A stretch of 64,000 bases of DNA from the NCBI GenBank assembly GCA_964627525.1, contig CAZVIA010000001.1:8007-72006 (forward strand), in the 5' to 3' direction. Position numbers and translations under genes: made by a program. Below the pieces are notes generated by a model. That model had not been told where the DNA came from, ran no database searches, and saw nothing but the letters and a program-made list of their open reading frames with translations. The DNA comes from an uncultured Gammaproteobacteria bacterium. Its GTDB lineage: Bacteria; Patescibacteriota; Patescibacteriia; Magasanikbacterales; JBBTQS01. This document shows, piece by piece, positions 2,406 to 57,392 of the stretch; the first letter of the stretch is position 1, and every line of letters starts with the position of its first letter.

Positions 2406-2417
2406 GCTAAATTTAGC
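2406..2417. promoter_or_regulatory. Palindromic motif GCTAAATTTAGC (copy 1 of 4), embedded in TTTTTTGGCTAAATTTAGCAAAAAAA
   Basis: Perfect 12-bp palindrome; copies also at 11356, 29926 and 49958, each beside a promoter and a GC-rich island. Confidence 0.5.
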
Positions 2418-2492: not shown

Positions 2493-3212
2493 ATGAAGTA
2501 TACTATCGGACAAACAGCAAAAATATTGGGTGTAACTGCACAAACTTTAAGGAGGTGGGAGGCTTCTGGTTTGTTAATGTCACATCGTTCAAAAGGAGGG
2601 CATAGATATTATGAAGAAGACGAAATTAGGGAATATTGCAATAGTCTTGATATTTTTAAATTGGCTTTTAATTGGACATTATCAGATACTGGTGAAAATA
2701 TATTAAAACACTTTTATTGTTCTGATTCATCAGTGTTTAAAGCAAGACTTGGCAAAATGTTAACAGAGTTACAAAAAGATTTGAGTGTTAGAAATTTAGC
2801 ATCATTAATTACAGCATCTGCAGGTGAGATAGGTAATAATTCCTTTGATCATAATTTGGGGAATTGGCCTGATAAAGCTGGAATTTTTTTTGGTTATCAT
2901 ACAAAAAAAAGACAAATTGTGTTAGCAGATCGTGGTCAAGGGGTTTTAACAACATTAAGTAGGGTAAGACCTGAATTGAAAATAGAAAAAGATGCTTTAA
3001 AGGTTGCTTTTACTGAATTTGTTACTGGTAGAGCTCCTCAACATAGGGGTAATGGTCTAAAGTGGGTTAAAAAAAATGTCTGTGATTATGATCTAGACTT
3101 GGTTTTTCAGTCAGGAAATGCCCGTTTAAAGATTGGGGGTGGTAATGAGGAATTAAAAATAAAGGAAGTAAAGAATAAAATACAAGGATGTTTATCCTTT
3201 ATTAATTATTGA
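2493..3212 (+). CDS. MerR-type HTH fused to a GHKL (histidine-kinase/anti-sigma-like) ATPase domain
   Basis: N-terminal TIGQTAKILGVTAQTLRRWE (MerR HTH). C-terminal N-box (GEIGNNSFDHN), G1 (LADRGQG) and G2 (RGNGL) boxes. Confidence 0.55.
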   Translation: MKYTIGQTAKILGVTAQTLRRWEASGLLMSHRSKGGHRYYEEDEIREYCNSLDIFKLAFNWTLSDTGENILKHFYCSDSSVFKARLGKMLTELQKDLSVRNLASLITASAGEIGNNSFDHNLGNWPDKAGIFFGYHTKKRQIVLADRGQGVLTTLSRVRPELKIEKDALKVAFTEFVTGRAPQHRGNGLKWVKKNVCDYDLDLVFQSGNARLKIGGGNEELKIKEVKNKIQGCLSFINY

Positions 3213-10205: not shown

Positions 10206-10310
10206 TTTTGTTTTTATTGACTAATTTATTAGTATTTGTTACTATGTATAGTCGTCTGTTGCTAATTAGTAAGTGGCGGGTGACATTAATTGGAAAAAGG
10301 AGAGTTTGCT

Positions 10311-11189
10311 GTGACAAGGAAATATCCTGTCTCCGGCGATCTTTACAAGAGAATTGATGCAAAAATGTCTGAGCTCAAGCGAATGCTCAGACAAAAGAAA
10401 GGGTGTATATTTGACCCTGCTGATCTTTTTGTTGCTTTGCAGTACTTGATTGATGGAAAGATCACAACACAGGATTTGATTGCAGTGTCTTTGAGAAAAG
10501 ACGAGCAAGCTCAACAACCTGCTGTGCGCATGGATAAGTTGTTCCTTTCTCCTGGGGAGCAGTGGTCCTTGTTTCTTGAGTACAATGAGAATCTACCTGA
10601 TGAGTTGAGATTCACCAAAGAAGAACTTTTGGCTTTTTGTATGGAAGGTGGTAATCCTAATCCACCTGAACTACCAGAAGACGCAAGTCCTCTCACGGTA
10701 GTCCAGCTCGTTCCTTATCAAGAAACAGTAGAAAAAACCATTGCGTTCTTGCTGGGTTTTGTTCAAAGCCAAATGGAAAAGCTCGGGCTGAACTACTACC
10801 AATGGGAAGGGTATAATGATCTTTTGACCAAAAAAGATGTAATCCGTCTTCTCCCAGGTATTGAACATCCAAGAAAGTGTCTTCGTTGGGAAATCGTAGA
10901 TCTTGGTGCAAATAGAGGAAAAAAGCCTTGTGATGTGCGAAATGAGAACAGTCCTCATGCAGCAGTACTAGCTGCAGCAGGATTTCACACCAACTGGTCA
11001 ACAAGCATGGATGGAGATAAAATCCCATACGTGTTTATGCCTGGGTATCAGGTTACTGTTCCAAGTGGTGATTCGTGGCAGTACGTGCCTCACATCTGGT
11101 TCCATCAGCACGATCGCAGGCTCAGGATCGGCTGCAGCTGGGATGGCTACTGCAACCAGGGTTGGGCTGTTGTGGTGGTTGCGATTTAG
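10311..11189 (+). CDS. Hypothetical protein (ORFan) on a GC-rich insert
   Basis: GTG start with AAGGAG 9 nt upstream (the ORF track used TTG at 10290). Higher GC and GC3 than neighbours. C-terminal Cys/Trp/His-rich motif; no recognisable domain. Confidence 0.5.
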   Translation: MTRKYPVSGDLYKRIDAKMSELKRMLRQKKGCIFDPADLFVALQYLIDGKITTQDLIAVSLRKDEQAQQPAVRMDKLFLSPGEQWSLFLEYNENLPDELRFTKEELLAFCMEGGNPNPPELPEDASPLTVVQLVPYQETVEKTIAFLLGFVQSQMEKLGLNYYQWEGYNDLLTKKDVIRLLPGIEHPRKCLRWEIVDLGANRGKKPCDVRNENSPHAAVLAAAGFHTNWSTSMDGDKIPYVFMPGYQVTVPSGDSWQYVPHIWFHQHDRRLRIGCSWDGYCNQGWAVVVVAI

Positions 11190-29404: not shown

Positions 29405-29410
29405 TTTTTT

Positions 29411-29451
29411 AAAAAGAAAACACCCAAGGACTCGTTGTGAGTCGCTGGGTG
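29411..29451 (-). terminator. Terminator of the minus-strand small GC-rich gene
   Basis: Hairpin cacccaaggactc...gagtcgctgggtg followed on the minus strand by a T-run. Confidence 0.55.
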
Positions 29452-29501
29452 CTAGAAGGGTCATTGTGGATCCTCGGAGCTCGGGGGGCGGATATCGGCG
29501 G

Positions 29502-29798
29502 TTAGGCTGCTTCGTCGATTTGGAGCTGGAAGAGCTCTCGCTCTGCCATCTTGAATCGGAACAGTGCCGTTCCGGGAATGGTCGCTCCTTGGACACGCTC
29601 GATGATCGAACGTTCCGTAAGAATTTCCATTCCTTTATGGAACTCTTCCAGATCAGTACTCTGACCCACAGAACTAGGGACGAAATCCCTGTCTGTGTCG
29701 AGCTGCACTACGAAGCGCGGCTCGCCAAGGGACTGGGCAGTCCCTCGTGCCAAAATGAACAGATCGACAAGCAGGTTGCCTGCGAGCGGATTCAGCAT
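29502..29798 (-). CDS. Hypothetical small protein (98 aa) on a GC-rich insert between scpA and scpB
   Basis: GGAGGG SD 6 nt before the second ATG; own consensus promoter and terminator; GC and GC3 well above neighbours. Confidence 0.5.
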   Translation of the reverse strand: MLNPLAGNLLVDLFILARGTAQSLGEPRFVVQLDTDRDFVPSSVGQSTDLEEFHKGMEILTERSIIERVQGATIPGTALFRFKMAERELFQLQIDEAA

Positions 29799-29865
29799 GT
29801 TTCCCTCCATAGAAACTTAGCTGAGGTGATCGTCGTGCAACGGCCTTTCCACTGCAAAACAGAAT

Positions 29866-29895
29866 ACTATAGCATATTTTGATGATTTTGTCAAG
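29866..29895 (-). promoter_or_regulatory. Minus-strand promoter TTGACA-N18-TGC-TATAGT
   Basis: Reverse complement reads cttgacaaaatcatcaaaatatgctatagt. Confidence 0.6.
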
Positions 29896-29925
29896 TCTTA
29901 GGTTTACACATGTAAGATTTTTTGG

Positions 29926-29937
29926 CTAAATTTAGCG
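29926..29937. promoter_or_regulatory. Palindromic motif copy 3 (TTTTTTGGCTAAATTTAGCGAAAAA) between divergent promoters
   Basis: Perfect 12-bp palindrome. Confidence 0.5.
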
Positions 29938-48422: not shown

Positions 48423-49877
48423 CTATTCACTCAATTTCATACCTCTAGAACCACTTTCAGTCCAACCACTTGGAGTAATTCGTACAAATTCTGCATTTTC
48501 CTGCATTTCCTCAATTGAATGTGCTCCACAATAACTTAAACCACTTTGAACTCCACGTGCCAACCAATCAATCACATCTTGTACAGGGCCTTTATAATCA
48601 ACTAAAGAAGAAATTCCCTCAACATATGCATTCATGCGTTTGCGAATAATTGAATTGGTTTGAGTTTCTTTGCGCACATGTGAGCTTTCATAAGACGCGC
48701 TTCCAATGTATTTTTTATAATTACGACCGTCTTTTTTAATAATCATTCCCGGAGCTTCATCTGTTCCAGCAAAAAATGATCCAGAATAAACAGAAGACGC
48801 ACCAATAGCCAAAGCTTTAGCTGCATCTCCAGGTAGTTTCATACCACCATCAGCAGAAACAGGCACGCCATATTTTTTTGCTTCGCGAGCAACATTCATA
48901 ACAGCTGTAAATTGTGGCACGCCAGCACCAGCTGTAATTCTAGTTGTGCATACAGGAGATGGGCCAATTCCTATTTTCAAACCATCTGCACCAGCTTCAA
49001 TCAAATCTCGCGCTGCTGCAGCAGTTCCAATATTTCCAACCATTACATCAATTTCAAAAATAGATTTTAACTCCTTAAGGCGTTTAATTACTAAATCAGA
49101 ATGTGCATGAGCAATATCTAAAACAATTGCATCAGCACCAGCGCTTATCATTGCTTGTGCCCGCTCAATAGTATCTTTAACACCAACACTAGCTCCTACT
49201 CGCAAACATCCGTTTTTATCACGAGTTGCATCAGGCCAATTTTCTAGTTTCTTAATATCTTGTGTTGTAATCAAACCACTTACTTTTCCATGATTATCTA
49301 TTAAAGGAAGTTTTTCAATACGATTAAAGTGTAGGATTTTTTTGGCTTCATCTAAAGAAATTCCTGGAGCAGCAGTTATTAGTTTTTGGCGAGGTGTCAT
49401 AACCGATGTGATTTTTTGAGATAAATCATATTCAAACAAATAATCTCTTGAAGTAAAAATTCCTACCAATTCATCTCCGTTTTTTACCAACAAACTTGTC
49501 ACACCTTTTGTTCTCATTATATTAACTGCATCTTGAATAGTTGCATGAATACTTACAGATAAAGGTTTGTTAATAACATAGCTTGTACTTCGTTTGACTA
49601 GCTCAACCTCAGCAGCTTCTTCTTCAATTGTCCCAAATTGATGGATTACACCTAAACCACCTCCACGTGCCATTGCAATTGCCATTTTGTGTTCAGTAAC
49701 AGTTGCCATGTTTGCACTTACAAAAGGTTTTTTTAGTTTTATGTTTTTTGTGAAAAAACTTTCTATGTTTGCTTCTGAGCGAGAACTAAGTGGAGTGCGT
49801 TGTGGCACTAATAAAACATCATTATATGTAAGTGCAAGAGGGAAGTTTGCTGGATTTTGGTGATTTGGGTTTTCCAT
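48423..49877 (-). CDS. guaB: IMP dehydrogenase
   Basis: CBS pair; GIGPSPVCTTR active-site loop. Confidence 0.9.
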   Translation of the reverse strand: MENPNHQNPANFPLALTYNDVLLVPQRTPLSSRSEANIESFFTKNIKLKKPFVSANMATVTEHKMAIAMARGGGLGVIHQFGTIEEEAAEVELVKRSTSYVINKPLSVSIHATIQDAVNIMRTKGVTSLLVKNGDELVGIFTSRDYLFEYDLSQKITSVMTPRQKLITAAPGISLDEAKKILHFNRIEKLPLIDNHGKVSGLITTQDIKKLENWPDATRDKNGCLRVGASVGVKDTIERAQAMISAGADAIVLDIAHAHSDLVIKRLKELKSIFEIDVMVGNIGTAAAARDLIEAGADGLKIGIGPSPVCTTRITAGAGVPQFTAVMNVAREAKKYGVPVSADGGMKLPGDAAKALAIGASSVYSGSFFAGTDEAPGMIIKKDGRNYKKYIGSASYESSHVRKETQTNSIIRKRMNAYVEGISSLVDYKGPVQDVIDWLARGVQSGLSYCGAHSIEEMQENAEFVRITPSGWTESGSRGMKLSE

Positions 49878-49957
49878 ATTTTTTTATTTATTTAATTTTA
49901 TATTGCACAAACATCTTAACATTTTGTAAAAGTATGTGAAAGTAGGTCTGTTTTTTG

Positions 49958-49969
49958 GCTAAATTTAGC
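49958..49969. promoter_or_regulatory. Palindromic motif copy 4 (TTTTTTGGCTAAATTTAGCTATTTTTT)
   Basis: Perfect 12-bp palindrome 30 bp upstream of the island promoter. Confidence 0.5.
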
Positions 49970-49998
49970 TATTTTTTAAAAAACTGTCTACAAGGGGC

Positions 49999-50027
49999 TT
50001 GACAAAATTCATCAGATGTGCTATGAT
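49999..50027 (+). promoter_or_regulatory. Promoter TTGACA-N17-TGC-TATGAT driving the GC-rich island
   Basis: gcttgacaaaattcatcagatgtgctatgat. Confidence 0.65.
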
Positions 50028-50355
50028 ACTACGTTATCAAGTGATGACACTTACAATTTTCGAGGAGAGAGAAAAAGGGTTATGTTTTTATGTAGCCTAA
50101 TAAAAAGCGGTTTCTCCTCAAGTAATCCGCTTTTTGTTTGAAAAATCGGAATAAGGAAAGTGTAGAGGAGGGAATGTTTTACTAGGAAGGCTTATATTAC
50201 TAAAGTTTCGGCCTTAATCCCAGTGCAACTTCTTCTGCACCTTCCTTAGTCCGATTGGACATGGACTCTTGGGACCAAACAAGAGTTGTAAGTACGTTCG
50301 TTACTTTGGGTGTGCGTTGGTCCGCATGTCCAGAGAGTCAAAGGGGACTTTCAAA

Positions 50356-51774
50356 ATGTCGAGCCTTACCGCAGTAGTCGTGACCGAGCAGACCGACGAC
50401 ACCACCACCACGACCGAGGTGGAGGCCACCGTGGCCACCACCGACGTCGAGGTGATGCAGAACGACCAGGGGCTCGAGGCGCAAGACGCGTCCGAGCCGA
50501 CCTTCGGCCAGAAGGTCGAAGGGCTCTGCGCGCAGATCGACCCCGAGCTGGAGTGCTCGGGAGAGGGTTGCGAGCGTAGCCGTCGAGACGGCTACGTAGG
50601 AACGTTCCTGTTCCCGCCGGTCGCCCGCATGGGTGACATCCTCAGTCAACTGGCTGAGGAGGATGGTGGGGGGCGCCAGCGCGTGGAGGTCGGAGTGACC
50701 GACATCAGCGAGTTCGCACGGTGTCGTTCCTGCGCCACGCAGGAGCACAACCAGGAACTCGACCGCATCGTCGGAGGCATCCTCTCGCGTCAGGCCAAAA
50801 AGGCTCGTTCGGAAGAGCTCAGGGTGGCACTCAAGGACGAACTCGGGTTCGTCGAGTGCACGCACGAGGATTGCGGCTGCCTGATCTACGTCGAGGAGCC
50901 CTCGCGGAACGTTTTGGTGGCCACTTTCGGCAACCAGATCCCGCGGCGGTTGTACCCGGCGTTCGTGCCGAGTCTCGCCTCTCTCCGTGAGGAGTTGGAG
51001 CGCGACGCGACGGTCGAGGATCTCGTTTCCCGCGCACGATGCGCAGGTCACGCGGACACCTTGGCAAAGGGGTCGAGCAAGTGGCACAAGGCCAGCTCGA
51101 CCTTGGGGTTGATGCGTCAGGAGCTCGCGGATCGCGAGTGGCGCAACAACATCAACGGTTTGCTGCGCGGTGCCGGGGCGGAGCTGTGCTCGTGTTGTGG
51201 CGACCGGGCAGTCTTCCCCCACCAGGACGAGATGGTCAGTCACGAGCAGGCCGTTCGGATCTTCGGTTGTGAGGGCGACGTGCCCCAGCAGTCGGACCTC
51301 GTCGGGTACTGTTTGCCCGTCGAGTGGTTCGAACGACAGGGTGTGGTGATCCTGTCCGAGCGCGACCTCTTCTCGCACATGATGTGCAAGAAGTGCGCTA
51401 TCCAGTCCGGTAAGGAATACCGGTCCGGGCTCGAGCAGCGCGAGGCTGAGGGTGACTGGGAGAACGTGAAGGCCAGGGACATCAACGGTCCAATGTTCTT
51501 CAAGTTCACGGCAACGTGGAACCGGCTGGAGCGCGAGTTGCGCGGCAGCCGGGGAAGCGACCAGGGCTCGAGTTCGGGCTTGACTCGCGAGCAGCGTCAC
51601 CAGACCGGCGGTGCCTTCGGTAACGCGGCGAACATGGGTTCGTCGAGCTACCGCAAGGACAAGTCCGAGAAGCGGAGTGCGGACAAGGAGTTCCGTGACC
51701 TGCAGAAGGGCGACGAGACTGGCCGTACGGGTCGGTCGAAGGAGCAGAAGAATGGGGGTAAGAAGGACAAGTAG
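50356..51774 (+). CDS. High-GC Cys-rich hypothetical protein (ORFan; multiple CxxC-like knuckles, Thr-rich N-terminus, disordered basic C-terminus)
   Basis: GC3-biased codons on the + strand and an AAGGGGA SD before the ATG at 50356. The antisense 420-aa ORF is a typical high-GC shadow. The ORF-track start at 50269 lies in lower-GC sequence. Confidence 0.6.
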   Translation: MSSLTAVVVTEQTDDTTTTTEVEATVATTDVEVMQNDQGLEAQDASEPTFGQKVEGLCAQIDPELECSGEGCERSRRDGYVGTFLFPPVARMGDILSQLAEEDGGGRQRVEVGVTDISEFARCRSCATQEHNQELDRIVGGILSRQAKKARSEELRVALKDELGFVECTHEDCGCLIYVEEPSRNVLVATFGNQIPRRLYPAFVPSLASLREELERDATVEDLVSRARCAGHADTLAKGSSKWHKASSTLGLMRQELADREWRNNINGLLRGAGAELCSCCGDRAVFPHQDEMVSHEQAVRIFGCEGDVPQQSDLVGYCLPVEWFERQGVVILSERDLFSHMMCKKCAIQSGKEYRSGLEQREAEGDWENVKARDINGPMFFKFTATWNRLERELRGSRGSDQGSSSGLTREQRHQTGGAFGNAANMGSSSYRKDKSEKRSADKEFRDLQKGDETGRTGRSKEQKNGGKKDK

Positions 51775-52511
51775 TCCTTCTCTTGCCTAGCACGAAGCTA
51801 GGTATCCGCGCTCTCTGCTCATAATCCCACACGCTCAAGGTTTGAACACCTAGTGTGGTCCACATCCAGTTCTTGGATGTGAAGGTGAAGTGATATGTTA
51901 CATACCCCAAATATTACATATCATTTCACAGCAGATCTGTTCTAGGTCTGCGACAACGTGGATGGGGTGTACGATTAACGCGTATACCCCTGTCCCATTC
52001 TGTAGTGTATTAGGGAATTGGAGGAAAAAACACTCCAAAAGTTTGCCCAAGGGATACACTGTAGATAGGACAAGGTCCAGATTCTTGCGCTAACGACGAA
52101 AACGCGCCTGAACAAGAGGCCACTAGCACATACAAAATAAGGGAGGGAGATTACAGTCGTGCTTGCACGATTACTCAAACCGGATTAGGTATGTTGCTGA
52201 CAGTAGCATCCTCATCCCGATCTAGGGAAAGAGGAAGCATGTCACACACGAAAGCGCCGGCGGACTCTTCCGTCGTCAATAGACCGTTCAAAGTCCTACG
52301 GGGCCGCGACGGAACACAAGGTAAATACCTAGGGGAGACGAGAGTTTGAACTTTGAAGAACCCTGACTATAACGTTTAGTCAGTTAGTAGCCAATGCAGA
52401 GAACCATCCTCCCAAACCCCCAGCAAGGCAAGTGCACTTTATATCCCCCAACTCTCTCCTTGTCTTGCTAGGGGTGTACAGAACCCGTTATTAATTTAGC
52501 GGGTTTTGTGT
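51775..52511 (+). other. ~730-nt ORF-free, mid-GC structured region ending in a rho-independent terminator; candidate long ncRNA, 3' UTR or decayed gene
   Basis: No ORF over 70 aa on either strand. Many local hairpins (cctagc-acgaa-gctagg; cacatcca-gttct-tggatgtg; ttccgtcg...cgacggaa). Ends aacccg-ttattaatttag-cgggtt + T-run. Confidence 0.4.
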
Positions 52512-52541
52512 TTTTAAAAAATCCCACGAAATTATATATAA

Positions 52542-52903: not shown

Positions 52904-52919
52904 AACTGTTTCAAGAATT

Positions 52920-52952
52920 AAAAAACCGCCCGTAGTATTGGGTGGTTTTTTA
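52920..52952. terminator. Bidirectional terminator between the convergent HU genes
   Basis: aaccgccc-gtagtatt-gggtggtt flanked by A- and T-runs. Confidence 0.6.
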
Positions 52953-52995
52953 ATTTAGTATAAATTTTTATTTTTAGTTTTAGTTTTTAAAATTT

Positions 52996-53397
52996 TTACA
53001 TCAAAGTTTCGCCAGATGGCTCAGGTTCAGTTTTTTCTGTATCTGGTTCAGGTGTTGGAGTTGAAGCAGGGGGTGGTGTTGTAGAGGTGGTAGGAGTAGT
53101 AGATCCAGAACCAGCTTGAGAATTTTTTAAAGCATCTTTTAAATTTTTTCCAGTTTTAAACTTAGCAACTTTAGTTGGTTTGATTTCAATTTTTTGTGAA
53201 GTGTTTTGTGGATTAACTCCAACACGACCTTTTCGCACGCGAGCGGAAAAAGTTCCAAAACCAGCAAGTACAACATCAGCATCTTTTTTAAGTTGCTCTG
53301 TTGTGATTTCTACAAAAGCCTCAACCATGTCTTCGGCTTCTTTTTTGTTTACGCCAACGCGCGCAGCAATTGCTTCTGCTAATTGTGTTTTGTTCAT
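52996..53397 (-). CDS. HU-family paralog with a Pro/Thr-rich acidic C-terminal tail
   Basis: HU fold (GFGTFSARVRKGRVGVNPQN) plus a ~45-aa PT-rich extension. Confidence 0.8.
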   Translation of the reverse strand: MNKTQLAEAIAARVGVNKKEAEDMVEAFVEITTEQLKKDADVVLAGFGTFSARVRKGRVGVNPQNTSQKIEIKPTKVAKFKTGKNLKDALKNSQAGSGSTTPTTSTTPPPASTPTPEPDTEKTEPEPSGETLM

Positions 53398-55232: not shown

Positions 55233-55399
55233 ATAAAAAATAATCCTACCGAGGTAAGGGTTCTTTACTTGACTAAGCGAAGCAACAAGCCCTAATGCTT
55301 GGCATTGGGGTGCGCCAGAGCAACCTAAACTTGACAAACTTCTTTAAATAAATTAAACTACCAAACGTTGCGCCGGCCTGAAAAAAGAGGAGGGTTTAC

Positions 55400-55711
55400 T
55401 TGGCACAGCAAACCTCAATAGTTCGTTGTCAGTGTTGTAACTACACTGGCCCTGGTTCCCATTTCCAAACACCACCGATCACCTCGATCGTTGGTAGTAG
55501 GAAGAGTGGTCTTTCCAGAGAAGATGTGCACAACAATGCGTTTTGCCGTCGGCATCTTGGTGAGATCGTGGGTGAACCAGTTGATTTCATGGCAGCTCTT
55601 CGCAAAGTGACTAGGGGATCACGTCGGGGAGTTCGCAGAGATCGTGTTTCTGATACAAGGGTGCGTCACGGTGGCAACCGTCGTCGTAGCCGAGGTGCTT
55701 TGCATCCGTAG
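55400..55711 (+). CDS. Small basic Cys/His-containing hypothetical protein (TTG start) on a GC-rich islet
   Basis: AAGAGGAGGG SD 8 nt upstream of TTG; Arg-rich C-terminus; CQCC...C...H; GC above local background. Confidence 0.45.
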   Translation: MAQQTSIVRCQCCNYTGPGSHFQTPPITSIVGSRKSGLSREDVHNNAFCRRHLGEIVGEPVDFMAALRKVTRGSRRGVRRDRVSDTRVRHGGNRRRSRGALHP

Positions 55712-55870
55712 GACATTGGTGGTGTGGTGGAGGATATGGTGGTTCTGAATTAGAACTGGATTCCCAACACCCTAACACCACAACCGAACAACAAGAAAGT
55801 GTTTTGGATAAGTCGAGCCTATATTATACTCGCAGCCCCAGAACGCTTTTTCTTTTTATTTGATTTTTGT

Positions 55871-56677: not shown

Positions 56678-56706
56678 TTGACAATAAAAGCTGTATGTGC
56701 TATGTT
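56678..56706 (+). promoter_or_regulatory. Promoter TTGACA-N17-TGC-TATGTT
   Basis: ccttgacaataaaagctgtatgtgctatgtt. Confidence 0.55.
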
Positions 56707-56757
56707 TATATATCAACGATCACCACTATAGGGTCAGAAGACCCAAAGGAGTGCATC

Positions 56758-57258
56758 ATGGTGAGTCAGAGATTGATAAATAATCCTGGGGTTTGTATGG
56801 CAAGTCAGCTGTACTTTCTAGGGATTTGTCTAAAATCAGTGCTAATAGGCACTGTTAATGGCTCGCGTCATGCTGATGCCATGCGGATGCGGATGCAAAT
56901 TGCATTTGTTTACCAGCAGGCAGAAAAAGGCGGAGTCCTAACGAGAAAAATCAAGAATTTGTTGTTGAGAGTAGGTAATTTTCTTGGTGATTCTACATTG
57001 TGGGATAGAAAAGATTTGGTTCACGGACTTGCTGGTCAGTTGAATTTGGCTGCAAATCATTTTTTTCCCGAAGAGCTGGATGAACATCTGGAGCCCCTCT
57101 CAACAGAAATTGTTGTGGAGAGTGAGGTTGAGCCTGAGTTTCCTCGGCCACCGACTCCGATGTACAAGGAGGTAGAGCCTGCTAGGTCTGCATCTCCTCC
57201 AGCTAGTGCCCTTAATCTGATCAGAGAAACGATCGTTGGTGCAAGAGCAGTATCTTGA
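56758..57258 (+). CDS. Hypothetical protein (ORFan, ~166 aa) with a Pro/Glu-rich C-terminus
   Basis: AAGGAG SD 7 nt before the ATG at 56758 (the ORF-track start at 56695 lacks an SD); followed by a double hairpin terminator. Confidence 0.45.
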   Translation: MVSQRLINNPGVCMASQLYFLGICLKSVLIGTVNGSRHADAMRMRMQIAFVYQQAEKGGVLTRKIKNLLLRVGNFLGDSTLWDRKDLVHGLAGQLNLAANHFFPEELDEHLEPLSTEIVVESEVEPEFPRPPTPMYKEVEPARSASPPASALNLIRETIVGARAVS

Positions 57259-57332
57259 TTTACAACTACAAAGAGAAACAAGCATCTTACAGTGAGTATT
57301 TGATAACGACACCGTTGATGCTTGAAAATAGT

Positions 57333-57392
57333 CCCACAGGACAACAATTCTGTGGGGCTTTTCTATTTTTTCCCAAAAAAATAGAAAAGCCC
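57333..57392 (+). terminator. Tandem hairpin terminator
   Basis: cccacag-gacaacaattc-ctgtggg, then a 17-bp perfect IR gggcttttctatttttt/aaaaaatagaaaagccc. Confidence 0.55.

Follow-up and report, generated by a model that had tools for sequence, protein, structure and literature searches.

We analysed a stretch of 64,000 nt (hereafter the window) from contig CAZVIA010000001.1 of GenBank assembly GCA_964627525.1 (positions 8,007 to 72,006, forward strand), which is deposited as an uncultured Gammaproteobacteria bacterium and assigned by GTDB to the Magasanikbacterales within the Patescibacteriota. The window contains a GC-rich island with a single long open reading frame (ORF), which encodes an orphan protein of 472 aa. 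The island is intergenic, located between the genes for IMPDH and HU, and its neighbours are housekeeping genes (gene order: ParA/ParB, RelA/SpoT, TopA, Mur ligase, DprA, Der, LytR, IMPDH, island, HU, HU, RNase Y, TruB, IF-2, thioredoxin, GDH). Its features, in window coordinates, are the following.

49958 to 49969 (no strand assigned): palindrome GCTAAATTTAGC, an operator-like host motif centred at about -71 from the predicted transcription start
49999 to 50027, + strand: predicted sigma-70-type promoter, TTGACA-17-(TG)TATGAT, matching 11 of 12 consensus positions and carrying the extended -10 TG
50034 to 50355, + strand: 5' leader of ~320 nt, AT-rich and host-like over its first ~110 nt, with ~47% GC from ~50144
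50044 to 50100 and 50082 to 50141, + strand: leader mini-ORFs of 18 and 19 codons
50099 to 50138, + strand: A/U-flanked, terminator- or attenuator-like hairpin (12-bp stem, 16-nt loop, 4 G-C pairs; -13.7 kcal/mol, z -4.5)
50144 to 50256, + strand: long interrupted hairpin (7 + 7 + 12 bp and an apical stem; -47.9 kcal/mol, z -6.7) that starts where the GC content rises
50333 to 50352, + strand: small hairpin (-8.5 kcal/mol) with the Shine-Dalgarno (SD)-like AAAGGGGA in and beside its loop, 7 nt before the ATG
50356 to 51774, + strand: coding sequence (CDS) of the orphan protein, with a GC content at third codon positions (GC3) of 0.83 and exact periodicity boundaries; the protein has an acidic N-terminus, a Cys/His core and a basic, disordered C-terminus
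51775 to 52475, + strand: ORF-free, hairpin-dense 3' region (the tail) in the same orientation as the CDS, ~48% GC
52476 to 52516, + strand: predicted intrinsic terminator of low, host-like GC content, a 14- to 15-bp hairpin followed by UUGUGUUUUU

Both junctions of the island are 100% identical in at least five independent assemblies, among them the contigs from Logan SRR9166041 (9.5 kb), JGI 3300009374, JGI 3300009405 and the NCBI/ENA assembly. Since these independent assemblies reproduce both junctions, the island is not a chimera. The partial contigs found in JGI 3300009375 and in three ENA assemblies are identical as well, apart from scaffold N-gaps, which account for the apparent variants of the island, and one single-nucleotide polymorphism (52082 T>A, in the tail; L017), the sole polymorphism across all samples of the unit. 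The unit is fixed and clonal wherever the host is sampled.

A compositionally foreign coding sequence

Sliding-window GC content reached 0.62-0.66 between 50300 and 51800, compared to ~0.31-0.39 in the flanks, and remained at 0.45-0.51 onward to ~52480. The orphan ORF itself has a GC content of 0.639 (GC1/2/3 = 0.63/0.46/0.83). GC3 values of 0.17-0.28 were obtained for the genes of IMPDH, LytR, RNase Y, IF-2, GDH, TruB and EF-Tu and for both HU genes, and of the frames in the window that stay open for 200 codons or more, only the orphan ORF was an extreme GC3 outlier. The difference between the island gene (GC 0.64) and the host (0.35-0.37) is of the kind expected for an acquired island. An initial annotation, made by eye from the sequence, had estimated a contrast of about 60% against mid-30s with G/C-biased third positions, and the measured values bear this out; the profile is not flat.

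A three-base periodicity in GC content sets in at the ATG, ends at the stop codon and holds in all nine 150-nt blocks of the CDS. The adjacent non-coding parts (50200-50355 and 51775-52477) have ~47-48% GC and do not show this periodicity. A length of 472 codons was reached in none of 2,000 dinucleotide-preserving shuffles (mean 206, maximum 455). Judged by these exact boundaries and by a length above that of all shuffles, the ORF appears to be a real coding gene.

Codon usage separates the gene from its surroundings even more clearly than bulk GC content. The log-likelihood per codon was +1.30 for the orphan CDS, compared to -1.0 to -1.5 for host genes. The codons ATC, TTC, TAC and CAC are used to 100% in the orphan CDS (4-26% in the host), and AAG and GAG reach fractions of 0.95 and 0.88 (0.16 and 0.23 in the host, respectively). 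The encoded protein is rich in G, A, R and P (0.28 in sum) and poor in F, Y, M, I, N and K (0.17), the corresponding values for host proteins being ~0.24 and 0.28. The CDS is thus compositionally foreign, with a codon choice that mirrors that of the host and amino acids of the high-GC type. We also considered that the high GC3 could be a by-product of selection for RNA helices. Such selection would make unpaired third positions AT-rich; however, GC content at predicted-unpaired third positions of the CDS is still 0.74 (0.31 at unpaired bases of the non-coding tail). We therefore rejected this explanation and take the codon bias as the compositional signature of another gene pool.

The orphan protein contains 16 Cys (3.4%, compared to 0-1% in host proteins) in five clusters, CSGEGC (residues 67-72), CRSC (123-126), CTHEDCGC (168-175), CSCC (278-281) and CKKC (344-347), together with 8 His. 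Its N-terminus is acidic and Thr-rich (net charge -18 over residues 1-120), and its last 70 residues are basic and rich in K, R, S and G. All five Cys clusters named in the initial annotation, as well as the Thr-rich N-terminus and the basic C-terminus, were recovered. No obvious signal peptide or membrane segment was recognized by eye. The predicted tertiary structure [AlphaFold2] had a predicted local distance difference test score of ~35, both for the full protein and for the Cys-rich core (residues 105-400). Because of the Cys clusters and the basic C-terminal pattern, the product is most likely a cytoplasmic protein that binds zinc and nucleic acids.

Homologs of the orphan protein were not detected. 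A word-indexed search of 5.8 billion clusters and an exhaustive phmmer (HMMER) search of 1.84 billion representatives returned only the protein itself, the sole other cluster member (P0002) being the same protein started by one gene caller from an ATG ten codons upstream, at 50326. Pfam gave no family at E<=1, including RuvC, HNH and the OrfB zinc-ribbon; HNH-like and TnpB-like motif resemblances that we had seen by eye were rejected, as they lacked support from these profiles. PHROGs and a PDB sequence search gave no match, PADLOC defence profiles gave 0 families at E<=1, and the only NCBIfam match reached 15 bits (cutoff 80) to the Cys cluster of MymT. There were no matches in phages and plasmids by tblastn or in phages by blastn, and scans of viral contigs with the orphan protein and a 27-nt tail hairpin as queries yielded nothing. 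With no homolog across ~15 billion proteins or in the phage, plasmid and viral-contig collections, the protein is an ORFan as first described, and the Actinobacterial or phage origin that had been suggested along with it found no support.

Expression signals and predicted RNA structure

The core of the island promoter is identical to that of the RNase Y promoter at 23 of 27 positions. The extended consensus they follow, TTGnCAAAATnCA...TGnTATnnT, has 10 matches (3.4 expected), including the island, HU and RNase Y promoters. Strong promoters of this house style were noted at 49999, 52552, 53478, 29894 (minus strand), 39986 and 55331. The palindrome GCTAAATTTAGC, with a T-run before it, occurs three times in the window (2406-2417, 29925-29936 and 49958-49969). 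At the island it is located 29-30 nt upstream of the -35 element, and the same spacing is found at a second orphan unit (unit D, described below). The composite motif AATTTAGC-N(0-15)-T5A6 is likewise present three times, with 0.01 occurrences expected. A centre at about -71 is typical of class I activators. By this comparison the predicted island promoter is shown to be of native house style, and the description of a strong, host-style promoter preceded by a palindrome, under which the gene is kept, holds, with the palindrome recurring at two other host loci.

Two other interpretations of this region were rejected. We do not regard the island promoter as a duplicate of the HU promoter. Nor does the border motif AATTTAGC...T5A6 represent an att site or a duplicated target site, since it is the same host motif, which recurs upstream of promoters, and its right-border copy lies upstream of the HU promoter. 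The half-site AATTTAGC was also observed 17-30 nt upstream of the -35 element at the EF-Tu, RNase Y and HU promoters. One copy of GCTAAATTTAGC lies just upstream of a gene (2493-3212) for a 239-aa protein with a MerR-type helix-turn-helix (HTH) and a C-terminal part of ~190 aa. This MerR-family protein may be an autoregulated factor that controls both the island and unit D. We did not retain a link to a metal regulon through this gene, because only a generic HTH match was obtained.

Folding of the leader (325 nt) gave a minimum free energy of -115.1 kcal/mol, compared to -79.6 +/- 4.2 kcal/mol in shuffles (z -8.5; antisense z -4.9). This is a 45% better folding energy, with 8 stems of at least 8 bp where 1.7 were expected. 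SD-like motifs of the GAGGAG type are present at 50062 (GAGGAGAGAG) and 50166 (GAGGAGGGA). The hairpin at 50099-50138 was not called by a consensus terminator scan and is probably leaky. Two details of the leader differ from the initial annotation. Where it had listed one mini-ORF of 17 codons, we measured two of 18 and 19 codons. It had also proposed a gaggaga...tctcctc stem; GAGGAGA (50062) and TCTCCTC (50113) do exist, but they are unpaired in the minimum-energy fold, in which TCTCCTC sits in the loop of the hairpin at 50099-50138. The idea of a leader stem or attenuator is not favoured by folding.

The tail (737 nt) folds with a minimum free energy of -271 kcal/mol, compared to -205 +/- 5.7 kcal/mol in shuffles (z -11.6; antisense z -5.3), a 32% better energy. 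It contains 9 stems of at least 8 bp (1.5 expected), which agrees with the dense hairpins described earlier. The longest ORF wholly inside the tail has 67 aa on either strand, consistent with the earlier statement that none exceeds 70 aa; a 134-aa ORF on the minus strand (51506-51910) overlaps the end of the CDS. The terminator hairpin (52476-52511; -19.6 kcal/mol, z -5.3) is present in all folds and is followed by a U-run where a clean terminator had been reported, but it was not among the calls of the consensus terminator scan. From the stop codon to 52476 we found no terminator-like hairpin with a U-run. Because of this, and because the predicted structure favours the sense strand, the tail is plausibly co-transcribed with the CDS.

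A scan of the 64 kb in 200-nt windows showed the island as 24 consecutive windows with a mean z+ of -3.7, compared to -0.46 +/- 1.5 elsewhere. Predicted structure also extends into the CDS, which folds 58 kcal/mol (9%) better than permutations of synonymous codons that keep the protein and its codon usage (z -5.1). The same permutation test gave z values of +0.8 for IMPDH and -0.6 for RNase Y. In the fold of the full 2,476-nt transcript, 68% of the bases are paired and 709 of the 842 pairs span less than 100 nt, so that it appears as a dense array of 7- to 14-bp hairpins, many of them within the CDS. Leader, CDS and tail each show a 3- to 6-fold enrichment of stems of at least 8 bp, which is not seen in host genes. 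As the antisense strands are much less exceptional (see the z values above), the signal points to RNA-level structure of the sense transcript. These folds show a predicted structure that is pervasive and sense-strand-biased and that involves synonymous sites within the CDS. The Rfam scan suggested in the initial annotation gave no family match in the island at the gathering threshold, at E<=1 or at E<=10, the last yielding only sub-threshold, miRNA-precursor-like hairpin matches of 14-24 bits. ARAGORN found no tRNA or tRNA-like element in the island.

Origin of the unit and competing explanations

We propose that the island is a fixed, horizontally acquired single-gene cassette whose regulated native promoter yields a single, highly structured RNA of ~2.5 kb, and we assign this reading a probability of about 0.45. 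Host RNA polymerase would start at ~50034 from the house-style sigma-70 promoter at 49999-50027, read through the weak hairpin at 50099-50138 and end at the intrinsic terminator at 52476-52516, giving one RNA of ~2.48 kb. This RNA would comprise the 320-nt leader with SD-like decoys and a 26-bp hairpin, the CDS in GC-rich alien codons and the 700-nt hairpin-packed 3' region. Its structure would make the transcript more stable towards decay of the RNase Y/J type and towards 3' exonucleases, or would control it in another way. By analogy with the 5' stabilisers and 3' retroregulators of RNase Y/J organisms, stabilisation or control of the alien mRNA is the most likely role of the structure. Hyper-stable Gram-positive mRNAs of this kind include Bacillus thuringiensis cry (STAB-SD, terminal stem-loops) and those with the B. 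subtilis aprE and ermC leaders. The island resembles them in its long leader, its distant SD-like sequences (GAGGAGAGAG at 50062 and GAGGAGGGA at 50166), its strong 5' and 3' hairpins and its RNase Y host; however, its structure also spans the CDS and the 700-nt 3' region, which goes far beyond known stabilisers.

The DNA could have entered by natural transformation, as DprA is encoded 5 kb from the island. In a reasonable scenario, ~2.33 kb of foreign DNA (~50144-52476) would have landed in a small native transcription unit or have been built into it; the first ~110 nt of the leader and the terminator are host-like, and the GC content rises at ~50144. Horizontal gene transfer into Patescibacteria via competence, phage and islands is documented (PMC12455944). 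Like the genomic-island islets and ORFans described there, the island has atypical GC content, codons and amino acids, is intergenic among housekeeping genes and lies in a genome with DprA competence machinery. In contrast to those islands, it is a single gene without integrase, tRNA or direct repeats, no donor or homolog was found, its composition switches at codon boundaries, its predicted transcript is extraordinarily structured, and promoter and operator are native. We thus regard the island as a compositional islet of a known kind, here with native wiring and with a pervasive predicted structure like that of RNA viruses.

The initial annotation had considered a horizontally acquired or selfish module. 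The first part agrees with the foreign composition of the gene (GC3 0.83), but we found nothing that marks the unit as selfish or mobile. None of the annotated neighbours encodes an integrase, a transposase or a reverse transcriptase, and none is a phage gene. The island is single-copy, with no part repeated elsewhere in the window and one protein cluster in databases, and it has no unit-specific terminal repeats, no tRNA target and no flanking direct-repeat hallmark. A target of a diversity-generating retroelement was rejected, as there are no repeats in the 64 kb and no reverse transcriptase among the annotated neighbours. Genome and metagenome scans with IMPDH, including its closest relatives (78%, 74% and 72% identity), did not reveal a shared neighbourhood; the lineage is a database singleton.

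Several points weigh against the acquired cassette. The GC content switches exactly at the start and stop codons between flanks of ~48% GC, unlike ordinary high-GC bacterial DNA. Codon usage without any drift towards that of the host would normally imply a recent transfer, yet no donor or homolog was found, the same metagenomes included. A 700-nt 3' untranslated region (UTR) at z -11.6 far exceeds what mRNA stabilisation needs. Additionally, transcription, translation and RNA structure rest on prediction from one sequence, and the route of DNA uptake is one that we infer. If the conservative reading is true, a streamlined, symbiont-type bacterium has captured an alien gene with undrifted codons and brought it under the control of a strong, regulated promoter of its own, with a predicted mRNA structure that rivals RNA-virus genomes. 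Such a unit would be useful for studying the wiring of foreign genes and selection at synonymous sites.

Alternatively, the leader from ~50144 and the 700-nt tail could form a large structured RNA that has its own function (as scaffold, sponge or component of a ribonucleoprotein (RNP)), either as a dual-function RNA or as a non-coding RNA (ncRNA) gene with a passenger ORF. The strong folding of tail and leader (z -11.6 and -8.5), both stronger on the sense strand, would fit such an RNA, as would the ~48% GC that is the typical look of a structured RNA in a 35% GC genome and the presence nearby of further units that have 45-54% GC and are driven by promoters (B, C and D, see below). The tail resembles OLE, GOLLD, ROOL and raiA, which are strongly structured ncRNAs of 600-800 nt that stand out as a GC bump in AT-rich genomes; however, it matches none of their Rfam models and seems to belong to an mRNA as its 3' portion. 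The lack of any Rfam family even at E<=10, the prevalence of short local hairpins rather than an obviously ornate multi-domain fold, the lack of homologous sequences for covariation and the fact that no separate promoter or terminator divides the tail from the CDS all speak against this explanation, which we consider unlikely. A protein of ~400-500 aa with Cys clusters beside several hundred nt of structured RNA is also reminiscent of IscB/HEARO and of TnpB with its omega RNA, but the island lacks RuvC, HNH and OrfB zinc-ribbon domains (E<=1), a HEARO match, insertion sequence ends and TnpA, and it is present in a single copy. It also differs from intron-encoded homing endonucleases and maturases, as it is intergenic (IMPDH-HU) and matches no intron model in Rfam.

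The gene could instead be a native, fast-evolving, lineage-specific one whose GC-rich codons and structure are kept by selection on the mRNA. Its native expression signals, the failure to find a donor and the other ORFans of the window with intermediate GC3 (0.59, 0.42, 0.40 and 0.38 for units D, E, B and C) are compatible with this view. Selection for helices does not explain, however, why unpaired third positions have a GC content of 0.74 when unpaired non-coding bases have 0.31. The amino-acid composition is of the high-GC type, and EF-Tu and HU, as highly expressed genes of the host, use AT-rich codons. We find a native origin improbable.

A domesticated virus- or retroelement-like RNP module, in which the zinc-knuckle protein with its basic tail would bind or package the RNA that encodes it, much like nucleocapsid, Gag or ORF1p, and which possibly came from an unsampled RNA replicon or virus, has similarly poor prospects. 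As in positive-strand RNA viruses and single-stranded RNA phages, which show genome-scale order, sense-strand folding exceeds that of shuffles in coding and non-coding parts and includes synonymous sites (CDS z -5.1). The monocistronic 5' UTR-CDS-long 3' UTR layout with a composition switch at the codon boundaries, the Cys clusters with a C-terminal tail rich in K, R, S and G, and the complete lack of relatives, which is common for viral proteins, could be accommodated as well. In contrast to those viruses and phages, the island is chromosomal DNA with a bacterial promoter, its operator and terminator are of host type, and copies that exist only as RNA are not known. Replicase (RNA-dependent RNA polymerase), reverse transcriptase, coat and maturation genes were not found (Pfam, PHROG, phage tblastn, viral contigs), and neither were ribozymes (Rfam), or a second copy or context in any sample. 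RNA binding by the orphan protein would be pure inference. In its most specific form, this idea describes a capsid-less, domesticated RNA-element-like module behind a host-regulated promoter, perhaps descended from an unsampled RNA replicon or virus, whose orphan protein would specifically bind the ~30 hairpins in its 2.5-kb RNA and make up a self-contained RNP with it; we hold this more doubtful still. To our knowledge, bacteria have not been described to carry such a chromosomal RNA-element-like RNP module. If one of the RNA or RNP readings is true, the unit would represent a new large structured RNA or protein-RNA module in a lineage with almost no experimental data.

That the ORF is untranslated and the whole 2.5 kb a non-coding RNA is very improbable. 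Long frames do arise easily in GC-rich sequence (the antisense strand is open for 420 aa, and shuffles reached 455 codons), and, as read from the sequence, the codons of the Thr/Val/Glu-rich N-terminus lie in a CCACC/GGUGG hairpin region. This view is difficult to reconcile with a codon-position GC pattern that is maintained in every block between the ATG and the stop codon and with an SD motif 7 nt upstream of the ATG; the antisense frame does not have a coding-type pattern (GC3 0.62). Finally, an assembly chimera or contaminant, to which the abrupt GC contrast and an island-only contig (L001, 50200-52125) in one JGI sample might point, deserves hardly any credence in view of the reproduced junctions, and L001, together with recurrent breaks at 50164 and 52150, was rejected as evidence of element boundaries or a second context, because the same sample holds fragmented host contigs (RNase Y, LytR, partial IMPDH) and the ends of L001 are therefore low-coverage breaks.

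Other orphan units and features of the window

Four further ORFans were observed in the window. Unit D (29410-29894, minus strand) has a house-style promoter (29894-29866) with GCTAAATTTAGC 30 nt upstream of the -35 element, a strong SD motif GGAGGG, a 3' end with predicted structure (z -7.8) and a terminator. Its ORF (29810-29502, 102 aa) has a GC content of 0.54 and a GC3 of 0.59; it had no match in Pfam, PHROG and NCBIfam and no homolog in the 5.8 billion clusters. Unit B (55331-55860) has a house-style promoter, an SD motif GAGGAGG and a TTG start, with a z of -2.8 for the RNA. Its ORF (55400-55711, 103 aa) encodes a CQCC motif and an Arg-rich C-terminus, has a GC content of 0.52 (GC1/2/3 0.60/0.56/0.40) and gave no family match. 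Unit C (56680-57370; RNA z -5.2) starts with the promoter TTGACA-17-TGcTATGTT, which has ATGTGCTATG in common with the island promoter, and ends with a clean terminator (57335-57365); its ORFan (56758-57258, 166 aa) has a GC content of 0.45 and no family match. ORF E (10290-11189, 299 aa), located just upstream of EF-Tu, has a GC content of 0.45, a GC3 of 0.42 and no match in Pfam, PHROG or NCBIfam.

When the island is included as unit A, the five form a GC3 gradient (A 0.83, D 0.59, E 0.42, B 0.40, C 0.38; host genes 0.17-0.28), which could reflect acquisitions of different ages. A comparison of units A-E showed no relatedness among them. House-style promoters are shared by these singleton ORFan units and the operator is found in two, which hints at a regulon of lineage-specific genes.

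Next to the island, IMPDH (48423-49877) showed an unusual similarity pattern. After three contigs at 72-78% identity, its closest relatives are DPANN archaea (Woesearchaeota, Nanoarchaeota; 66-71%), which suggests that this gene has been shared between domains. Together with the bacterial gene set and the low GC content, this pattern suggests a host of the CPR/Patescibacteria type with a small genome. Both the cumulative GC skew and the direction of the genes switch at ~31500 and at ~49700-49900, and ParAB is located at 36.8-38.5 kb. The island lies exactly at the second skew switch, between the divergently oriented IMPDH gene and the block of plus-strand genes.

Downstream of the island, a strong, A/U-flanked hairpin (52913-52973) was observed between the convergent HU genes. 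It has z values of about -5 to -7 on both strands and weak, sub-threshold Rfam matches, and is probably a bidirectional terminator. In two ENA scaffolds, N-gaps are present at 52977-53034, at the end of the second HU gene (52996-53397) that encodes a Thr/Pro-rich low-complexity tail and in the adjoining downstream spacer. This region is difficult to assemble and may be variable.

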